64,000 nucleotides of DNA from IMG/VR virus record IMGVR_UViG_3300027749_000039, positions 96,001 through 160,000 of that record; one strand, given 5' to 3'. Below are positions 10,575 through 63,086 of the stretch, in pieces; within the stretch, counting starts at the first letter, position 1; each line of letters begins with the position of its first letter. Below the pieces are notes generated by a model. It made no database searches and had not been told where the DNA came from. It saw only the letters and a program-made list of their open reading frames with translations. This DNA is from a virus. The translations under genes were made by a program, and so were the position numbers.

Positions 10575-11702
10575 TTATGCTACTGCTAAGTAAATCTTGC
10601 GATTCATTCTTTCGATAGCTATAACCTTTACTTTTACTGTTTGACCAGCATTGAAAGTTTTTTCAGCTTTTTCTAATTCAGAGTTATGAATCAATCCAAT
10701 TGTTTCATCGTCTAAGAAAATGAGTGTTCCAAATTGTTTGTTTTCTTTCACTTTGCCTGTTAAAGTTTGTCCAATCTTAATATTATCCCACAAAGTTTCT
10801 CTTAAAATTTGAGTTAAGATAATCTTAGAATCCTTTATTATTTCCTTTATGTAGAATTGTATTTCATATCCCGAAGGAATTTGCTTAATCTTTTCTTGCC
10901 ACTCTGGATCTATATTCGTTTTGTGAATCATACCTGTGAGACAAATATCACCATTTGAATTGGAAGCGAATTCAACGAATACGCCGAAATCAGTGGTTCC
11001 TGTTACGCTACCTGTGTAAACTGTATTTGTTTTTAATTCCTTTATTGCTTCTGGAATCAAAGATTGTAAATACTTTCTTCTTGAAACGATGTAAGTTCCT
11101 TCTTCTCTCGAAAAAGATTCTATCATTACCGCAAGTGTTTTACCAACAATTGTTTCTGGTTCAGAAAGTCTGTTAATACCTGCAAGTGTGTTCGGCATAA
11201 ACCCTGGTAAAATAATTGTGTCATATTGTAACTCAACATTGTAACCAGCCGGTGTCATTTCTTTAATGAAGGCGACAATACTATCTTCTTCTTTTAGAGC
11301 TTTAATTGTGTCGTGCGCTCTAGTCTCGTAGAGTTGTGCTACAGAACCTTCGATTAAGTAGTTTCTGTTGTTAACCTTTGAAACTAATAAATCAACTTCA
11401 TCTCCAATATTGAGTGATTTGAAATATTTAAGTTCATTTGGTTTGTTATCAACTCTGACATAATCTTTGAAACCTCCTTCGAACATAAGTGATTCTTTAT
11501 TCATACCAACATAAATTAAGGTATAAACCTCCCCTTCTTGGGGAACATTTACTACCATAGAATCGTAGAGTGAATTAAGTAAGGCTTTTTGTATTAAAAG
11601 CTCTTGATTTGATTTTACCTCGTTATCGAAGTCAAAATCAACGTCTGTGTTGTTGGAAAAATACTTTTTCCTTTTTTCGTTGTAAATAATGGTTTTGCCC
11701 AT
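10575..11702 (-). CDS. rpsA: Ribosomal protein bS1-like, multiple S1 domains
   Basis: Repeated S1 domains (YTGSVTGTTDFGVFVEF...GMIHKTNI; LTGKVKENKQFGTLIFL...GLIHNSEL) and IVSRRKYL. Confidence 0.8.
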   Translation of the reverse strand: MGKTIIYNEKRKKYFSNNTDVDFDFDNEVKSNQELLIQKALLNSLYDSMVVNVPQEGEVYTLIYVGMNKESLMFEGGFKDYVRVDNKPNELKYFKSLNIGDEVDLLVSKVNNRNYLIEGSVAQLYETRAHDTIKALKEEDSIVAFIKEMTPAGYNVELQYDTIILPGFMPNTLAGINRLSEPETIVGKTLAVMIESFSREEGTYIVSRRKYLQSLIPEAIKELKTNTVYTGSVTGTTDFGVFVEFASNSNGDICLTGMIHKTNIDPEWQEKIKQIPSGYEIQFYIKEIIKDSKIILTQILRETLWDNIKIGQTLTGKVKENKQFGTLIFLDDETIGLIHNSELEKAEKTFNAGQTVKVKVIAIERMNRKIYLAVA

Positions 11703-11805
11703 TTTTATTTGTTTTTAAAGTGTAATAGCAATATTGCTGTTAATATTTAGTTAAAATTACAGAAAAGTTTTGAAAAAACAAAAGTTTTTAGAATTATTTT
11801 TTTTG

Positions 11806-12177
11806 TTATTCATTTTCTTTCTTTAAACCCATCTTAGCGATATAATCTCGGATGCGGATTGCGTCTTCGTATTTCTCTAATTTAAGACATTCTTCAAGTT
11901 TTTTATTTAAATCCTCTAAAATCTTTTTGGGATTTTTCTTTTTGCTTTTATAAGAATCATCAAAGATATTATAATAATCGTTCATCTCCTCAATATCCTT
12001 AAAAATAGGTATTGGGCTGTCTTCTAAATCACTTAATTTTTCACTTTCGACTAATAATTTAAGGAATAAGTCATTGAATGCCACATTGTCTATAAGATAT
12101 TTGGCTAAATGATTTGGACGATTTTGAAATATTTTTAGTAGTTTTACTAGATTTCTGTATATTCTATCTTCTGACAT
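11806..12177 (-). CDS. UvrB/UvrC-motif (UVR coiled-coil) protein
   Basis: C-terminal LEECLKLEKYEDAIRIRDYI. Confidence 0.65.
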   Translation of the reverse strand: MSEDRIYRNLVKLLKIFQNRPNHLAKYLIDNVAFNDLFLKLLVESEKLSDLEDSPIPIFKDIEEMNDYYNIFDDSYKSKKKNPKKILEDLNKKLEECLKLEKYEDAIRIRDYIAKMGLKKENE

Positions 12178-12207
12178 AATTAGTATATTTTTAAGTGCTT
12201 CTAAAGT

Positions 12208-12927
12208 TTAAATCTTTGTAAAATATAAATTATAATAGTAATTATAAGAAAATTTAGAACTAGGTTTCTCTTGATTAAATGTTATAGTATTAACCATTTT
12301 AATGGTATCATTTTTTGCGGTATATATTGATATTAAATTATTTGAATCCGCAATTTTTTCAGTAAATAAATTACTATTTTGTAATAATGGTATATTAATA
12401 TTATAAGTATTATTTCTTATAGGACTATTTAAATCATTATAAGTAATAAATAAATCTATATTGGTTAATTGGTAAAGTTGCACTAAGTTATCAACAACAT
12501 ACTGATTTATGGCATAATTGATGTCGTTATTTAAAGTTATATTATTTGAAACACCTTCAAATGTCCTATACTTTTTAAGAGTTGCAAATAAAAAATTTTT
12601 TAAAATAGCGCCGTAATTTACTGTTAATATCCAAGAAGTGTTTGCGGAAAGTTGTGTGTTCGTTTGTGACTTATTTATTACTAATGAGCTATTAGTAAGT
12701 TTATCCGAATTAGTATTATATATTTTTGGACCTAATAATTGTTCGGCTGTTAAATTTAACTGCTCATTATTAATATTCTGATAGTAAATTATATTTTGAT
12801 TTTCGATAGAAATTGAACTATCAAATTTTACTAATTTTGAGGCAAAAAAAGATTTCTTCTCTTTCATCGAAAGAGTTCCATAAACTTTATTATATGTAAA
12901 TTCTGGTGATATGTGCGTTATTTTCAT
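12208..12927 (-). CDS. Hypothetical virion-associated protein
   Basis: N-rich 239 aa ORF co-oriented with the large structural genes. Confidence 0.6.
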   Translation of the reverse strand: MKITHISPEFTYNKVYGTLSMKEKKSFFASKLVKFDSSISIENQNIIYYQNINNEQLNLTAEQLLGPKIYNTNSDKLTNSSLVINKSQTNTQLSANTSWILTVNYGAILKNFLFATLKKYRTFEGVSNNITLNNDINYAINQYVVDNLVQLYQLTNIDLFITYNDLNSPIRNNTYNINIPLLQNSNLFTEKIADSNNLISIYTAKNDTIKMVNTITFNQEKPSSKFSYNYYYNLYFTKI

Positions 12928-33232: not shown

Positions 33233-33392
33233 AAAATATACGAAAAAGTTTTTAAAAACTTTGAAAATTAAAAACTTTTTCGTATTTTTGCTTAAAATAA
33301 TAACAAAAAGAAAAAAAAGCACTTTTAGAATATAATATATATAATTATACGAAAAAAACAAAAATAATTTTTGTAAATAAAAAACTTTTTCG

Positions 33393-33400
33393 TATCTTTG
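33393..33400 (+). promoter_or_regulatory. Bacteroidota-type -7 promoter element driving tRNA operon 1
   Basis: TTTG about 20 nt upstream of TATCTTTG. Confidence 0.7.
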
Positions 33401-33433
33401 TTGTATAATAACAAACAATAAGAAATTAAATAT

Positions 33434-33505
33434 AGCGGGATAGAGCAGTGGTAGCTCGCAAGGCTCATAACCTTGAGGTCATTGGTTCGAATCCAGTTCC
33501 TGCTT
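33434..33505 (+). tRNA. tRNA-Met(CAT), initiator-like
   Basis: Cloverleaf; CAAGG-CTCATAA-CCTTG; fMet-like GAGCAG.GGTAGCTCG D arm. Confidence 0.88.
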
Positions 33506-33520
33506 CAAAAAAAGACATAT

Positions 33521-33592
33521 TGCGGAGTAGAGCAGTGGTAGCTCGCAAGGCTCATAACCTTGAGGTCGTTGGTTCGAATCCAGCCTCCGTTA
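33521..33592 (+). tRNA. tRNA-Met(CAT), initiator-like (U1.U72 mismatch)
   Basis: Near-duplicate of 33434..33505 with an unpaired 1:72 position. Confidence 0.88.
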
Positions 33593-33631
33593 CTAAAAAA
33601 TTAAAAACAATAACAACTTAAAAATTATTTT

Positions 33632-33721
33632 ATGAAACATTTCAGCTCACATAAACATTCGTTTAAATTCTGGTTTAGCAATCAGGGTTCGGTAGAGTTT
33701 TGTTTCAAAAATGCTTCATAA
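33632..33721 (+). CDS. Leader peptide 1, MKHFSSHKHSFKFWFSNQGSVEFCFKNAS (putative attenuator)
   Basis: A-rich start context; codons 2-16 are only K/H/F/S/W, matching the downstream tRNAs. Confidence 0.8.
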   Translation: MKHFSSHKHSFKFWFSNQGSVEFCFKNAS

Positions 33722-33740
33722 GAAGTTATTGAAATGAACT

Positions 33741-33781
33741 AAAAATCTCCGAACTTTATATAAAGTTCGGAGATTTTTTTT
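33741..33781 (+). terminator. Attenuator terminator 1
   Basis: AAAAATCTCCGAACTTT-ATAT-AAAGTTCGGAGATTTTTTTT. Confidence 0.9.
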
Positions 33782-33785
33782 ATAT

Positions 33786-33859
33786 GGTGATATTGGTGTT
33801 AGCGGTTAGCATGGGACCCTGTGAAGGTCTAGGGACGGATTCGAATTCCGTATATCACC
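33786..33859 (+). tRNA. tRNA-His(GTG)
   Basis: G-1, C73; GGACC-CTGTGAA-GGTCT. Confidence 0.88.
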
Positions 33860-33862
33860 CAA

Positions 33863-33981
33863 GAAAAGGTAGATTAAACAAAGAAATTATTTAATTGAAA
33901 CTAGTATAGATTAAATAATCGTATTGATGGTAAAGGTAAGCGGTTAAGCGGAAGATAGTGGTTCGAATCCACTCCTTTTCA
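33863..33981 (+). pseudogene. Degenerate tRNA-like element
   Basis: GAAAAGG/CCTTTTC acceptor and a perfect T arm, with no recognisable D or anticodon arm. Confidence 0.45.
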
Positions 33982-33992
33982 CGAAATAATAT

Positions 33993-34066
33993 GGTGATTG
34001 TAGCTCAATTGGTAGAGCGCAGGTTTGTGGAACCTGAGGTAGCGGGGTCGGAGCTCGTCAATCACC
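33993..34066 (+). tRNA. tRNA-His(GTG)
   Basis: G-1, C73; CAGGT-TTGTGGA-ACCTG; atypical T loop. Confidence 0.8.
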
Positions 34067-34072
34067 CAATAA

Positions 34073-34144
34073 GGTAATCAAGCTAACTTGGTAACGTGGG
34101 AGATTCCAACCCTCCAGTCGTCGGATCGTAACCGGCTGTTCGTG
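34073..34144 (+). pseudogene. Decayed tRNA, probably Trp(CCA)
   Basis: TTCCAAC loop and T arm present; acceptor 5' strand does not pair. Confidence 0.45.
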
Positions 34145-34155
34145 CAAAATAAAAT

Positions 34156-34228
34156 ACGGGTATGGTGAAAATGGCTATCATTTTTGTCTCCAAAACAAAA
34201 GTTCCGGATTCGAATTCTGGTGCCCGTG
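34156..34228 (+). tRNA. tRNA-Trp(CCA)
   Basis: TTTGT-CTCCAAA-ACAAA; G73. Confidence 0.88.
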
Positions 34229-34235
34229 CTAAAAT

Positions 34236-34307
34236 GGTGTTGTAACATAGAGGTTTATGTGTTGATCTGAAAAATCAAAAATGCCAGATCGTTACTGGCC
34301 GACACCA
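34236..34307 (+). tRNA. tRNA-Phe(GAA)
   Basis: TTGAT-CTGAAAA-ATCAA; T loop ATCGTTA. Confidence 0.85.
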
Positions 34308-34370
34308 CAAAAATAAATTAAAAAAGGAAGACGCACCCATTTTATATATAAGTAAATAACAAATATAAAA

Positions 34371-35249
34371 ATGGGTGCGAATTCAAAAGAATGGACAGAA
34401 AAGGAAAAAGAAATACTTTTTAAATATTTTCCGAGTATGGGTAGTAATTATTGTTCAGAATTAACAGGAAGAACAAAAAGAGCTTGTCAAGAAATGGCAA
34501 AAAAATTAAAATTGAAGAGAGATTTAGATAAGTATGAAGATAAAGAAAAATTAGAGGAGTTAGTTAAAGGTTGTAAATCATATACAGAATGTGTAATAAA
34601 ATTGGGGTTATCTCCCAGATGTTCTGGTAATTTTCAGACTATCAAAAAATATATCACAATATATAATATAGATATTTCACATTTTGAAAATGGATTTCAA
34701 ATAGGCAACAAACCTCAAAATAAGAAAGAATTATCAGAAGTTTTAATAGAAAACTCTTTTTTTAGCAGAACTCATCTTAAAGAGAGACTATATAAAGAGG
34801 AATTAAAAAAGAAAGAATGTGAGATATGTGGAATTGGTGAAGATTGGTTTAATGGAACTAAAATAGTCCATATTTTAGACCATATAAATGGTGAGCCTTA
34901 TGATAATCGTCTTGAAAATTTAAGAATCGTTTGTCCTAATTGTAATTCAACATTAGAAACAAATTGTGTTGGGAATAAAGTTAATAAAATATATGATTCT
35001 AAAAAAGATGAATATAAAAGTGAAAAAACACATAAAAAATGTAATTGTGGTAAAATAATTTTGAAAGAAAGTAAATTTTGTTCAGAATGCAATGCCAAAA
35101 GTAAAAGAAAAATTATTAATAGACCAACATTTGAAGAATTAGTTAAGTTAATAGAAGAAAATGGTAATACTGGAACAGGTAAAATATACGGCGTTAGCGA
35201 AGCTGTCATAAGAAAATGGTTAAAACAATATAAAAATAAATTAGTATAG
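34371..35249 (+). mobile_element. Free-standing HNH homing endonuclease inside tRNA array 1
   Basis: CEIC...LDHINGEPYDNRLENLRIVCPNCNS and a C-terminal HTH. Confidence 0.88.
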
Positions 35250-35262
35250 AATATACTAAAAT

Positions 35263-35337
35263 ACAGACTAGTCTATGGTAGTCGGCGGAACTCCAAATCC
35301 CGTGTGACTCGAGTCAGTTCAATTCTGGCAGTCTGTG
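35263..35337 (+). tRNA. tRNA-Trp(CCA), atypical D arm
   Basis: ACAGACT/AGTCTGT acceptor; CTCCAAA loop. Confidence 0.6.
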
Positions 35338-35347
35338 CTAATAAATT

Positions 35348-35431
35348 GGAAAGTCCTAATTAGGAGTAGTTAGCCGTTTTGAAAACGGTGAAGGTGTAAT
35401 AGCCGTGGGGGTTCGAGTCCGTCACTTTCCG
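35348..35431 (+). tRNA. tRNA-Ser(TGA)
   Basis: GCCGT-TTTGAAA-ACGGT; long variable arm; G73. Confidence 0.82.
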
Positions 35432-35442
35432 CAAAATAAAAT

Positions 35443-35519
35443 ACGGGTTTCGTCTAATATTTAAGACACCTCCCGGCAAGGGAGTTAATGTTGTAAGGGT
35501 GAAAATCCTACAACCCGTG
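35443..35519 (+). pseudogene. Atypical tRNA-like element (loop CGGCAAG, T loop GTGAAAA)
   Basis: ACGGGTT/AACCCGT acceptor and D arm intact; anticodon and T loops non-canonical. Confidence 0.45.
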
Positions 35520-35535
35520 CAAAAAGATTAAAATT

Positions 35536-35571
35536 ATGAAACAATATAAACAGATTAAACAAAAACAATAA
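35536..35571 (+). CDS. Mini leader peptide MKQYKQIKQKQ ahead of three tRNA-Lys genes
   Basis: A-rich start context, four AAA Lys codons, alternative hairpins downstream. Confidence 0.55.
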   Translation: MKQYKQIKQKQ

Positions 35572-35603
35572 GTTAGGCTCCTATGGATGCTTAACAAATA
35601 TAA

Positions 35604-35678
35604 GCATTCGTAACTCAGAGGCAGAGTATTCGGCTTTTAACCGAAGTGGCGAGATTTCAAAATTCTCCGGATGCACCA
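35604..35678 (+). tRNA. tRNA-Lys(TTT)
   Basis: TTCGG-CTTTTAA-CCGAA; CCA encoded. Confidence 0.88.
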
Positions 35679-35681
35679 AAA

Positions 35682-35753
35682 CCGCTTGTAGCAAACTGGT
35701 GTAGGCAAGAGTCTTTTAAACTCTGGGGCTGGGTTCGACTCCCGGCAGGCGGA
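35682..35753 (+). tRNA. tRNA-Lys(TTT)
   Basis: AGAGT-CTTTTAA-ACTCT. Confidence 0.85.
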
Positions 35754-35758
35754 CAATA

Positions 35759-35830
35759 GATTTTATATGTCAATGGTTAGACTAGCAGACTCTTAATCTG
35801 CGGATCTGAGTTCGAGTCTCAGTGAAATCA
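35759..35830 (+). tRNA. tRNA-Lys(CTT)
   Basis: GCAGA-CTCTTAA-TCTGC. Confidence 0.88.
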
Positions 35831-35846
35831 CAAAAAATTTTTAAAA

Positions 35847-37115
35847 ATGTTAGAAATAAAATTATTTAGGCAAAATAAGGACCTAATTATAGAAGGACTT
35901 AAAAAGAAAAATTTTAAGCAACTTAATTTAGTTGATGAAATTATTAAATTGGATGAAGATTTAAGAAAATTAAAACAGGAAACTGAAAATTTAACTTCTG
36001 TTATTAATAAAAATAATAGCGAAATTGCAAGATATATTAAAACAGATGCAGTTAAGGTAGAAAATATTAAAACTCATAATATTATTTTAAATGAAAAAAT
36101 TGAGGAATTAACTAATATACTAAATCAAACTGAAAACGAGTTATTGGATAATTTAATTCAATTACCAAATCTTCCAAATCAAATTGTAGAAATAGACAAT
36201 GGTAATGAAGCAACTAATGGTAATGTTATTATAAGAGAAAACTTAACTCAGTGTACACAAGGTAAACCTCATTGGGAAGTAATTAAAGATTTAAATATAG
36301 TTAGTTTTGAACTAGGAACTAAAATTACTGGTGCTGGGTTTCCTGTTTATATCGGAAAAGGCGCAAGATTACAAAGAGCTTTAATTCAATATTTTTTAGA
36401 TTATAATACTAATGCTGGTTATACAGAATATAATATACCATTAATGGTTAATTATGATTCTGCATATGGTACAGGACAACTCCCTGATAAAGAAGGTCAA
36501 ATGTATTATGCTGAAAAGGATAATTTATACTTAATTCCAACAGCAGAAGTTCCTTTAACTAATATCTTTAGAGATGAAATAGTTAATTTGCCCATAAAAA
36601 TGACAGGACATAGTGCTTGTTTTAGAAGAGAAGCTGGCGCACATGGTAAAGAAGTAAGAGGGTTAAATCGAGTTCATCAATTTGAAAAAGTTGAAATAGT
36701 TCAATTAGTTCAACCTGATAAAAGTTATGAAGTATTGGAAGAAATGGTTTTACATGTTGAGAACTTGATAAAAAGCTTAGAATTACCATATAGAATACTT
36801 AAATTAAGTGGCACAGATATGAGTTTTGCATCTGCTTTAACTTATGACTTTGAAGTATATAGTGCGGCTCAAGACAGATGGTTAGAAGTAAGTTCTGTGA
36901 GTAATTTTGAAACTTTCCAATCTAATCGTATGAAAATTAGATTTAAAGAAGATAAAAAGAACAAATTAGTTCATACTTTAAATGGAAGTTCTTTAGCATT
37001 ACCAAGAATAATGGCTTGCTTATTAGAAAATAATCAAACACATGAAGGTATAAAAATACCAGAAGTATTAATACCGTATTACGGTGACAAATTTTTAACA
37101 AATGGAAAATTATAA
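35847..37115 (+). CDS. serS: Seryl-tRNA synthetase
   Basis: N-terminal coiled coil, LIPTAEVPL, FRREAG, RVHQFEKVE, EVSSVSN and LNGSSLALPR. Confidence 0.95.
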   Translation: MLEIKLFRQNKDLIIEGLKKKNFKQLNLVDEIIKLDEDLRKLKQETENLTSVINKNNSEIARYIKTDAVKVENIKTHNIILNEKIEELTNILNQTENELLDNLIQLPNLPNQIVEIDNGNEATNGNVIIRENLTQCTQGKPHWEVIKDLNIVSFELGTKITGAGFPVYIGKGARLQRALIQYFLDYNTNAGYTEYNIPLMVNYDSAYGTGQLPDKEGQMYYAEKDNLYLIPTAEVPLTNIFRDEIVNLPIKMTGHSACFRREAGAHGKEVRGLNRVHQFEKVEIVQLVQPDKSYEVLEEMVLHVENLIKSLELPYRILKLSGTDMSFASALTYDFEVYSAAQDRWLEVSSVSNFETFQSNRMKIRFKEDKKNKLVHTLNGSSLALPRIMACLLENNQTHEGIKIPEVLIPYYGDKFLTNGKL

Positions 37116-37347
37116 AAAATTAATAGAGAAATATAAAGTTGAAATAGTAGATTATATTATTTCTTCAAAAGACCAATTAGAAGAATACCGTAAAAAGTAT
37201 TTAGGCGCAAATGGAATTATAAAACAAGTTTATAATCAATTAAAACAAGTTCCTGCTGAAAAAAGAAAACAAGCAGGAGAATTGTTAAGAGGATTAAAAG
37301 ATTGTGCTGAAAATAAATATGAAAATTCTTTTGTTAATTCAAAATAA
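37102..37347 (+). CDS. Stand-alone PheRS alpha-subunit N-terminal tRNA-binding arm
   Basis: LEEYRKKYLGANGII...LKQVPAEKRKQAGELL matches the PheS N-terminal coiled coil; no catalytic domain follows. Confidence 0.72.
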   Translation: MENYKKLIEKYKVEIVDYIISSKDQLEEYRKKYLGANGIIKQVYNQLKQVPAEKRKQAGELLRGLKDCAENKYENSFVNSK

Positions 37348-37360: not shown

Positions 37361-37409
37361 TAAAAGAAAATAAACAAAAAAGCATTTTAACAATATAATA
37401 TATACAATT

Positions 37410-37466
37410 ATGAAAACAATATCATCGTCTAGTCGCAGTAGTTTAACTTTGGAAATCCAGAGATGA
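37410..37466 (+). CDS. Leader peptide 2, MKTISSSSRSSLTLEIQR (putative attenuator)
   Basis: Block TCA TCG TCT AGT CGC AGT AGT; downstream tRNAs are Ser and Arg(ACG). Confidence 0.8.
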   Translation: MKTISSSSRSSLTLEIQR

Positions 37467-37485
37467 TAGTGTATGTATATACTTG

Positions 37486-37517
37486 AAGCCTTGGATTGTA
37501 AAATTCAAGGCTTTTTT
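37486..37517 (+). terminator. Attenuator terminator 2
   Basis: AAGCCTTGGAT-TGTAAA-ATTCAAGGCTTTTTT. Confidence 0.88.
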
Positions 37518-49460: not shown

Positions 49461-50240
49461 ATGGACGATAACGTCCGCTCCTATGACGAAACAACTCTGT
49501 TTTGTCCTGCAGGAATGTCCCAATACAAATCCTTATTTAAGGATATTAACCACAAGGGAACAATAAGTAATATACAATCTTGCCTTCGTTTAAACGATAT
49601 GGAAGAAATAGGTGATGGGAGCCACCTATTGTATTTTAACATGATTGGATTATTCTCGTTTAGAGAAATGACTATACAAGAAGCTATTGACTTTTGGATG
49701 GAATTTCTCTATAAAATCAATTGTATTCCTGATTACATTACTATTCATCCTGATAAACCTGAATGGCGAGATTTCTATTCTAATTATAATGTTGAAATAC
49801 GTTATGATGAAGGGTGTATATGGAGTGACGGAGGTATCGGTGGCTACTGCACTGAATTTTACAAGGATGATATTGAAATAGGTAATATAGTTAATCCGTT
49901 AGGTACTTGTATTGACGCAGGGTGGGGTTTGGAACGTATAGAAATGGTTTTATATAATGAGAGAAAAACAAAAGAAGAAACCTTAATTAATACAATTATG
50001 AAAATGATTGAAAGCGGATTTACACCTACTTACAATAAACAAGGTTCTCTTTTGCGAAAACTTTTAAGAATTTGTTATTTAGAAAAAATAGAAGTTCCGC
50101 ATCAATTTTACCAAGATGAAATTTTGAGACAACAAAAAATTATAGAAAAATATAATAGAATGAAAGAGAAACCTAAGTTTAAAAATATGTCTAAGGAGTT
50201 TTGGTTTAATACTCTTGGTATTGATATAGATTTAATGTGA
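49461..50240 (+). CDS. alaS: Minimal alanyl-tRNA synthetase (aminoacylation core only)
   Basis: TTLFCPAGMSQYK, IQSCLRLND, FNMIGLFSF, WSDGGIGGYCTEF, EIGNIV and IDAGWGLERI. The frame is open upstream to 49377, so the true start may be earlier. Confidence 0.82.
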   Translation: MDDNVRSYDETTLFCPAGMSQYKSLFKDINHKGTISNIQSCLRLNDMEEIGDGSHLLYFNMIGLFSFREMTIQEAIDFWMEFLYKINCIPDYITIHPDKPEWRDFYSNYNVEIRYDEGCIWSDGGIGGYCTEFYKDDIEIGNIVNPLGTCIDAGWGLERIEMVLYNERKTKEETLINTIMKMIESGFTPTYNKQGSLLRKLLRICYLEKIEVPHQFYQDEILRQQKIIEKYNRMKEKPKFKNMSKEFWFNTLGIDIDLM

Positions 50241-62279: not shown

Positions 62280-63086
62280 ATGAGACATAAACAAACAGAA
62301 CAAACTAAAAAGAAGTTATCAGAAATAAGAAAAAAATGGTTAGCAGATAATCCAGAAAAACATCCATGGAAAAGAAAAGATAAATTCTTATCTAAGCCTT
62401 GTGAATTTTTCAAAAAGAAATTATTGGAAAATAATTTAACTTTTTCGGAAGAACAAAACTTACTTGAAGGAAGAGCATATTCGGTAGATGTAGTTTTTTA
62501 TGATAAAATGATTGGATTTAAAATAAATGGAAATCAACATTATAATTCAGATAAAACTCTTAAAGATTATTATAAAAAAAGGAAAGAAGAGATTGAAATT
62601 TTAGGATGGAAATTATATGATATACATTATACAAAAGTTTATAATGAAAAATTTATAGAGGAAATAATAAAATTCATAAAAGAGCAAAAGGAAATTCCAA
62701 ATTTTAATTTTGAATTTTTTATAAAAAAGGTTAAAAAAATATGTAAAGATTGTGGTAAAGAAATATCATATAATAGCATAGAAAGATGTTTAAAATGTCA
62801 TAATATATCCAGAAGAACAGAAAAATATGAAGTTAATTTAAAATATAAAATAGGTGCTAATAAAAAAGAAAAATTTATAAAAAATTGTAATTGTGGTGAA
62901 ATAATATCCATAAATTCAAATAATTGTAAGGAATGTTTTGATAAAATACAAAGAAAAATAGTTGATAGACCAAGTTTAGAAATTTTATTAGAAGAGGTTA
63001 AAGATATAGGATATAGTGCGGTTGGTAGAAAATATGGAGTTAGTGATAATTCTATAAGAAAGTGGATAAAAAATTATCAAAAATAA
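62280..63086 (+). mobile_element. Vsr/DUF559-like endonuclease with Zn fingers and HTH, inside tRNA array 4
   Basis: YSVD...GFKINGNQHY, L..LGW, CxxC pairs, and a C-terminus shared with 34371..35249. Confidence 0.75.

Follow-up and report, generated by a model that had tools for sequence, protein, structure and literature searches.

The subject of this analysis is attenuator 1, a putative regulatory element in a 64,000-nucleotide (nt) stretch of viral DNA (the window) that corresponds to bases 96001-160000 of the 190,602-bp IMG/VR record IMGVR_UViG_3300027749_000039. With a probability of roughly 0.75, judged from its sequence, attenuator 1 is a ribosome-mediated (leader-peptide) transcription attenuator which gates an operon of phage tRNA and aminoacyl-tRNA synthetase genes. 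Between 33370 and 37347 of the window, the order of parts is a promoter, two tRNA-Met genes, an open reading frame (ORF) of 29 codons, a 17-bp terminator, a tRNA array, the seryl-tRNA synthetase (SerRS) gene serS and an ORF for the N-terminal domain of phenylalanyl-tRNA synthetase (PheRS) (Table 1). All the parts described in the original prediction, which a model had made by reading the window, were found where it had placed them. Its view of the locus as an attenuator also holds up against the codon match, the antiterminator statistics and the conservation in 12 sequences. The computation directly shows how the locus is built, how its codons match the array, and which alternative pairings it allows and how far these are conserved.

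The mechanism that we infer from these parts comprises translation of the leader, a direction of switching and a physiological signal. Transcription from the promoter would always produce the two initiator-like tRNA-Met and the leader RNA. When charged cognate tRNA is short, decoding would be slow and the ribosome would stall at the His, Phe, Ser, Lys and Trp codons 2-15, leaving the antiterminator strand free. This strand would then pair with the 5' arm of the terminator as it emerges and block the terminator, so that RNA polymerase would continue into the His, Trp, Phe, Ser and Lys tRNAs, serS and the PheRS-arm ORF. When decoding is fast, the ribosome would traverse the antiterminator strand and open the stop-codon hairpin. 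The 17-bp terminator would then form, and the polymerase would halt 5 nt ahead of tRNA-His. As the products of the operon are the very tRNAs under test, this would amount to a negative feedback that stabilises the supply of these five decoding capacities around a set point while the Bacteroidota cell is infected.

The terminator stem (33741-33778) consists of 17 bp, five of them G:C pairs, with a loop of 4 nt, and is followed by eight T residues. In the fold of a transcript ending after the 5' arm of the terminator, 14 bases of this arm are paired with leader nt 55-70 (33686-33701), and the proposed antiterminator strand is the best duplex partner that the arm has. The duplex reaches -14.7 kcal/mol compared to -7.6 ± 2.0 kcal/mol for 1000 dinucleotide shuffles (P=0.005), in agreement with the earlier claim that 33684-33701 can capture the 5' arm. 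A further hairpin, 1:2, is formed within the leader (nt 35-44 with 49-58). As its 3' strand overlaps the antiterminator strand, the modelled helices are predicted to give the classical 1:2 / 2:3 / 3:4 topology. At the Rfam gathering level nothing but tRNA was found in the window; there was no T-box match, and the Phe_leader model scored 24 bits against a cut-off of 55, over the terminator only. An independent promoter behind the terminator was rejected, as a scan for the -33/-7 promoter motif found no copy at 33401-37329, from the leader to the end of the unit, and the T-run lies 5 nt from tRNA-His. Next along is the promoter of module 2, and it overlaps the end of the PheRS-arm ORF.

Codons 2-16 of the leader, KHFSSHKHSFKFWFS, specify Lys, His, Phe, Ser and Trp. 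The match of this block to the array, which had been put forward from the start, holds for 13 of the 15 codons at the level of the tRNAs encoded in the unit and for 15 of 15 at the level of the amino acid. Over the whole leader, 18 of 28 codons can be decoded by the tRNAs of the unit, where the codon usage of the phage itself gives an expected fraction of 0.203 (binomial P=5e-7). The AAA at codon 2 is common to all seven leaders of this kind in the genome and is therefore probably a feature of initiation rather than part of the sensor.

Relatives of the locus were reached via SerRS homologues, the contigs encoding them, and two DNA pattern scans. A single-query SerRS search for related loci gave no relative on a viral contig, and 8 of the 12 metagenome pattern matches were due to chance. 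The resulting alignment of 12 leaders consists of attenuator 1 and eleven further copies, which lie on at least nine distinct giant-phage contigs besides that of the present record; these include contigs of 727 kb and 777 kb, and the SerRS proteins are 64-89% identical. In every sufficiently long copy, a Met-type tRNA, the leader, the terminator, the His, Trp, Phe, Ser and Lys tRNAs and serS follow one another in this order. The length of the leader ORF is 29-30 codons in 12 of 12 sequences. Between two groups of homologues, Ser and Phe are exchanged at codons 10, 11 and 13, each exchange costing two or three base changes, and the set of His, Lys, Phe, Ser and Trp is retained throughout. Where residues of the tail are conserved (Gly-Ser-Val and Cys-Phe), their codons fall in the antiterminator strand and in the outer stem of the stop-codon hairpin. 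Taken at the level of sequence, the leader peptide thus appears to be selected for its composition and not for its order of residues.

The alternative pairings are conserved in the same 12 sequences. In the 7-bp core of the antiterminator, 97.6% of the alignment cells are paired, and a single Watson-Crick pair varies, with G:C in eight sequences and A:U in the other four. This change is synonymous in the leader (TCG to TCA) and is mirrored in both arms of the terminator. The terminator is 100% paired with four compensated pairs, and variation is free in its outer pairs. The arm and the antiterminator have seven positions in common, of which five are invariant and one varies only together with its partner in the leader, as a dual constraint from terminator and antiterminator predicts. 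Hairpin 1:2 is paired in 97.5% of cells, with the pair 39/54 being C:G in eight sequences, G:U in three and A:U in one. All 12 sequences have the stop codon in or beside the apical loop of the hairpin within the antiterminator loop, and the stems of this hairpin differ in sequence yet still pair.

The placement of the codons was compared with the geometry of a translating ribosome by masking a 28-nt footprint around each A-site position in a transcript ending after the 5' arm of the terminator. In this simulation, the probability of the antiterminator core is at least 0.85 with the A site at codons 2-15, falls to 0.41 at codon 16 and is 0 at codons 18-24. The cognate block thus ends where stalling ceases to be productive. 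In the leader of attenuator 1, cognate codons occupy 12 of 13 positions in the antiterminator-permissive window and 5 of 14 beyond it. For the seven leaders combined, cognate codons fill 69 of the 102 permissive positions compared to 19 of the 65 others (Fisher P=1e-6), and the cognate blocks end 0-4 codons from the last permissive codon.

Six more modules of the same build, with a promoter, an ORF beginning ATG-AAA, a strong terminator and a tRNA array, are present in this genome. Three of them start within the window, at 37410, 46662 and 61809, and three lie beyond it, at genome positions 161034, 171086 and 172519. The latter were invisible to the model behind the original prediction and therefore constitute an independent test of the pattern. 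The first of these leaders contains Leu codons (CTA, TTG and CTT) and Met codons, and its array encodes Leu(UAG), Leu(AAG), Leu(CAA) and a CAU tRNA. The second contains Gln, Pro and Asp codons ahead of three Asp tRNAs, a Pro tRNA and then Gln tRNAs, and the third has five consecutive Gln codons, followed by three Gln tRNAs and a GlnRS gene. When the codons of each leader were scored against the decoding set of each array (7 x 7), the true pairing came out highest of the 5040 permutations. Between them, the seven modules account for all 20 amino acids, in their leaders as well as in their arrays. In seven of seven modules, the sequence that pairs best with the terminator arm is found close to the 3' end of the ORF, in one case overlapping the stop codon, and by the duplex test four modules are individually significant or nearly so (P<=0.052). 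A stricter full-fold test, which takes the energy gained once the terminator arm may pair, is significant only for modules 4 and 7, and module 2 gave no antiterminator. A second case of concerted change is module 2 (37410-37514), where coordinated changes in four strands were found across five relatives, from TTTGG/CCAGA/CTTGG/CAAGG in the window to the type TTCGG/CCGAA/CTCGG/GAGG.

Several results weigh against an attenuator at this locus. The codon AGC, which occurs twice in the block, is not decoded by the sole Ser tRNA (UGA) of the unit and fits serS only, at the level of the amino acid; to this extent the match first claimed between codons and tRNAs does not stand. The core of the antiterminator has just 7 bp, and in the full-fold test the energy gain of attenuator 1 (-5.3 compared to -2.6 ± 2.1 in shuffles, P=0.11) is not significant. 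The compensatory change in the core may be a single event, as the four sequences with A:U are probably one clade. Finally, the antiterminator loop contains the stop codon, and in the simulation a ribosome parked there leaves both antiterminator strands uncovered (P=0.95). To terminate during fast decoding, the element would therefore have to depend on when the ribosome crosses the strand relative to the emergence of the terminator arm, and on steric exclusion after melting of the internal hairpin. Melting of the terminator by the ribosome was rejected, the stop codon lying 19 nt ahead of the 5' arm.

The alternative that survives best, although it is unlikely, is that control is exerted in essence for the synthetase (serS, and ancestrally pheS) in response to amino-acid starvation, with the tRNA genes as passengers between leader and synthetase. 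The unit does end in serS, the block is richest in Ser and Phe, and the two AGC codons match serS and no tRNA of the unit. In relatives, serS is followed by a PheRS-alpha gene with the domain PF01409 only. Other modules end in a matching synthetase as well: a catalytic fragment of AlaRS (259 aa, 49461-50240) closes a module with a matching leader, a class II enzyme of the Asp/Lys/Asn type (L036:2908-4098) follows a leader with five Asn codons, and GlnRS (L036:12882-14471) follows the leader with five Gln codons. This explanation, however, does not account for His, Lys and Trp, which make up 7 of the 15 codons of the block and have tRNAs but no synthetase in the unit. Neither module 2 (Ser/Arg) nor module 4, up to the end of the window, contains a visible synthetase, yet both leaders match their arrays, and in module 5 the matches at codon level follow the Leu isoacceptors.

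Still less probable is a fixed, leaky terminator which would set a constant ratio of initiator to elongator tRNAs, the ORF being untranslated or encoding a peptide with a separate role. A strong terminator with a short antiterminator is what this would look like, and the weak outcome of the full-fold test in several modules is in line with it. It would leave unexplained, however, the match between leader codons and arrays (P=1/5040 for the seven modules and P=5e-7 for this leader), the conservation of composition rather than order, the placement of the cognate codons (P=1e-6) and the compensatory change across three strands. The least probable alternative keeps a leader that senses decoding and gives it another output, such as RNA processing or stability, Rho access, or a reversed logic in which fast translation leads to read-through, and while the stop codon inside the antiterminator loop departs from the classical trp arrangement and the transcript is a tRNA precursor that needs cuts by RNase P and RNase Z, a canonical U-tailed terminator with a conserved, mutually exclusive pairing has the parts of an intrinsic-termination switch, whose stem a ribosome on a stop codon 19 nt short of it is unable to melt.

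A leader-peptide attenuator at this locus would resemble trpL, hisL, pheL, leuL and thrL in its short ORF with regulatory codons and its exclusive 1:2, 2:3 and 3:4 helices. It shares with these classical attenuators an intrinsic terminator just ahead of the first regulated gene and the use of ribosome position as a sensor of charged tRNA. By contrast, it would regulate phage tRNAs and a synthetase rather than biosynthetic enzymes and would sample five amino acids; its stop codon lies in a hairpin within the antiterminator loop, and it belongs to no Rfam leader family. Sensing of several amino acids by interspersed codons occurs in the ilvGMEDA leader (Ile, Leu and Val) and in the thr leader (Thr and Ile), whereas the five amino acids of attenuator 1 mirror the tRNA content of the operon and not a shared pathway. 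In function, attenuator 1 comes closest to the pheM leader of E. coli pheST, where leader-peptide attenuation acts on an aminoacyl-tRNA synthetase gene, and the unit of attenuator 1 likewise ends in serS and a PheRS-alpha fragment. However, pheM senses Phe only and controls no tRNA gene, while the main cargo of attenuator 1 is tRNA genes. At the level of the system attenuator 1 is also like the T-box, in which a shortage of charged tRNA leads to antitermination of genes that restore the supply of aminoacyl-tRNA. The T-box, however, binds uncharged tRNA directly without translation, whereas the sensor of attenuator 1 is predicted to be a translated ORF.

The roles of phage tRNA genes are debated, the suggestions being codon compensation, substitution for host tRNAs that have been degraded and evasion of tRNA-cleaving defences, among others (PMC10264068, PMC11555353, PMC10802454, PMC11025619), and the regulation of these genes has hardly been addressed. 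No description of leader-peptide control of tRNA genes was found in the literature searched, which covered few subscription journals, and attenuators, leaders, terminators and promoters go unmentioned in a 2024 opinion piece and in a large computational survey of 2026 on phage tRNAs. It seems fairly probable that the seven modules together perform a decoding audit, in which each array, with its synthetase where present, is transcribed only when the corresponding set of charged tRNAs falls and the initiator is transcribed unconditionally. This would be a virus-encoded homeostat of tRNA supply which works on the principle of the trp attenuator and which a clade of giant Bacteroidota phages has in common. 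The fall in charged tRNA could result from decay of host tRNAs after takeover, from a mismatch in codon usage, or from tRNA-cleaving host defences. If this holds true, attenuator 1 would be the channel for His, Phe, Ser, Lys and Trp, and the mirroring of the array by the leader codons would imply that the phage gauges decoding speed for each codon set and supplies tRNAs on demand. Ribosome-mediated attenuation, so far a matter of amino-acid and synthetase genes, would then take in tRNA genes as well, and viruses. The tRNA supply hypothesis would become directly testable, and compact, modular sensors of tRNA availability for Bacteroidota would be on offer.

Table 1. Features of the attenuator 1 unit (window coordinates).
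Feature	Position	Strand	Basis
Upstream promoter copy, Bacteroidota-type	33260..33290	+	-33 TTTG, 19-nt spacer, -7 TAnnTTTG; motif scan
Promoter motif of the unit	33370..33400	+	-33 TTTG / -7 TATCTTTG; motif scan
tRNA-Met(CAU) 1, initiator-like, before the gate	33434..33506	+	ARAGORN, Rfam 66 bits; A11:U24, A1-U72
tRNA-Met(CAU) 2, initiator-like, before the gate	33521..33593	+	ARAGORN, Rfam; A11:U24, U1.U72 mismatch, A73
Leader ORF, 29 codons + TAA	33632..33721	+	ORF between promoter and gated genes
Cognate codon block, codons 2-16, Lys/His/Phe/Ser/Trp	33635..33679	+	Codon-to-tRNA matching
Hairpin 1:2, leader nt 35-44 with 49-58	33666..33689	+	Full-length minimum free energy fold
Antiterminator 5' strand, codons 18-24	33684..33702	+	Folds, duplex test; core GTTCGG 33687-33692
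Hairpin within the antiterminator loop, stop codon 33719-33721 in apical loop	33703..33738	+	Per-sequence folds
Intrinsic terminator, 17-bp stem, T8; 5' arm 33741-33757 common to antiterminator	33741..33782	+	12-sequence pairing
Gated tRNAs His(GUG), tRNA-like with insert (33863-33981), His(GUG), Trp(CCA), Phe(GAA)	33787..34308	+	ARAGORN, Rfam
HNH-type homing-endonuclease-like ORF within the array	34371..35249	+	PF13392, E=2.4e-4, under curated cut-off
Gated tRNAs Trp(CCA, atypical), Ser(UGA) 35348-35432, Lys(UUU) x2, Lys(CUU)	35263..35831	+	ARAGORN, Rfam
serS, full-length seryl-tRNA synthetase	35847..37115	+	PF02403 + PF00587
81-aa ORF, PheRS alpha N-terminal domain only	37102..37347	+	PF02912, E=3.5e-13

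Within the gated array, the His tRNAs start at 33787 and 33994, the Trp tRNAs at 34156 and 35263 and the Phe tRNA at 34236. The Ser(UGA) tRNA was detected only under relaxed ARAGORN settings, and the three Lys tRNAs (UUU, UUU and CUU) span 35604-35831. Where two to three Trp tRNAs had been counted, two are present, the second being atypical and weak in Rfam, and a third was not confirmed. The gap between the last tRNA and serS is 16 nt. The operon does end in serS and a PheRS arm as had been proposed, the former being full-length and the latter an 81-aa ORF with PF02912 only; the PheRS catalytic core PF01409 was not found anywhere in the 190-kb record. The PheRS-alpha genes near serS in relatives encode 364-388 aa with the PF01409 core only (L011:8374-9474; L032:11094-12188; L033:4762-5856; L034:7319-8413; L035:3608-4774). 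This phage and the locus L009 have just an N-domain ORF of 81-85 aa, which is dissimilar to these genes, and the idea that the 81-aa ORF is a remnant of the 366-aa PheRS-like gene of L011 was rejected for lack of similarity.

Hallmarks of a bacterial initiator tRNA are A11:U24, an anticodon stem that closes with three G:C pairs and a 1:72 mismatch. Both tRNA-Met genes lie upstream of the terminator, as had been predicted, and carry A11:U24. They are initiator-like only in part, as both have two of the three G:C pairs by the anticodon loop (A29:U41 taking the place of one), and position 1:72 is A-U in the first gene and U.U in the second. Met-type tRNA genes, or tRNA-like sequences with a CAU loop, are found between promoter and leader in every sufficiently long homologue. 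By their position, both tRNA-Met genes would escape the gate. It is plausible that initiator tRNA is left ungated since reading of the leader itself needs initiation.

The record has a completeness of 31% according to CheckV and is therefore a fragment of a very large phage. The window is AT-rich and contains 35 tRNA genes, all on the + strand (ARAGORN). A scan for the motif -33 TTTG, 17-21 nt, -7 TAnnTTTG gave 18 copies on the + strand and one on the - strand, and a separate promoter-motif scan gave 10 matches, all of them on the + strand, compared to 0 in the control. The consensus TAnnTTTG at -7 is that of flavobacterial sigma-A, and leader-peptide attenuation ahead of amino-acid operons has been reported in flavobacteria (PMC9723704). 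The nearest named homologues of the phage SerRS, at about 60-63% identity, belong to Chitinophagaceae, Flavipsychrobacter and other Bacteroidota (labels from metagenome-assembled genomes). The phage DNA was traced to freshwater and lake DNA metagenomes, with no RNA run among the sequencing runs listed. Given this promoter layout and the SerRS homologues, the host is most likely a freshwater Bacteroidota bacterium. In a blastn comparison with deposited phages, matches were confined to tRNA genes and an HNH gene.

An element of about 30 nt (AAGCAYTTT .. ATATAATATATA) follows three promoters, at 33317-33350 and 37380-37409 of the window and at genome positions 171056-171085. Two of the copies lead directly into the ATG of a leader. 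The copy at 33317 leads into ACG instead, followed by the second promoter, the tRNA-Met genes and leader 1, and this arrangement is preserved in relatives. It could represent the fossil of a former leader start, or else a control site close to the promoter. Relatives hold repeated small elements in their ungated stretch from promoter to leader (L016:2150-2650; L032:5260-5560; L033:840-930; L034:500-690; L009:1995-2075), of which one is a hairpin of about 40 nt with a covarying stem (GGGCGA..TCGCCC versus GGATGA..TCATCC) and the other an 18-nt repeat ending in ATCTGGACA. Neither occurs in the 190-kb record.

Three stretches of the array (33863-33981, 34068-34155 and 35433-35603) are not called as normal tRNAs. 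The first resembles a tRNA (Rfam 36.7 bits) that carries an insert of about 45 nt, and relatives have Phe or Trp tRNAs at places comparable to these stretches. ORFs resembling homing endonucleases, of the HNH or DUF559 type and with zinc-ribbon and helix-turn-helix tails, occur in four tRNA arrays (window 34371-35249 and 62280-63086; L036:1300-2133 and 11640-12569). As they are placed differently from those of the relatives, their sequence context suggests mobile insertions within gated operons.

Two further tRNAs of the genome were noted. A well-formed tRNA with the amber-reading anticodon CUA (G000:C1:54412-54485) lies 41.5 kb before the start of the window, about 300 nt past one occurrence of the promoter motif of the phage. 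TAG is the stop codon of leader 5 (genome 161034-161102), and amber suppression would extend this leader by four codons. The CAU tRNA that closes the Leu array of this module (L036:2373-2458; genome 162373-162458) has 86 nt and a long variable arm. Such a class II shape belongs to tRNAs for Leu, Ser and Tyr and is odd for a Met tRNA, and the candidate identities of this CAU tRNA are Met, Ile2 or a Leu-charged tRNA.

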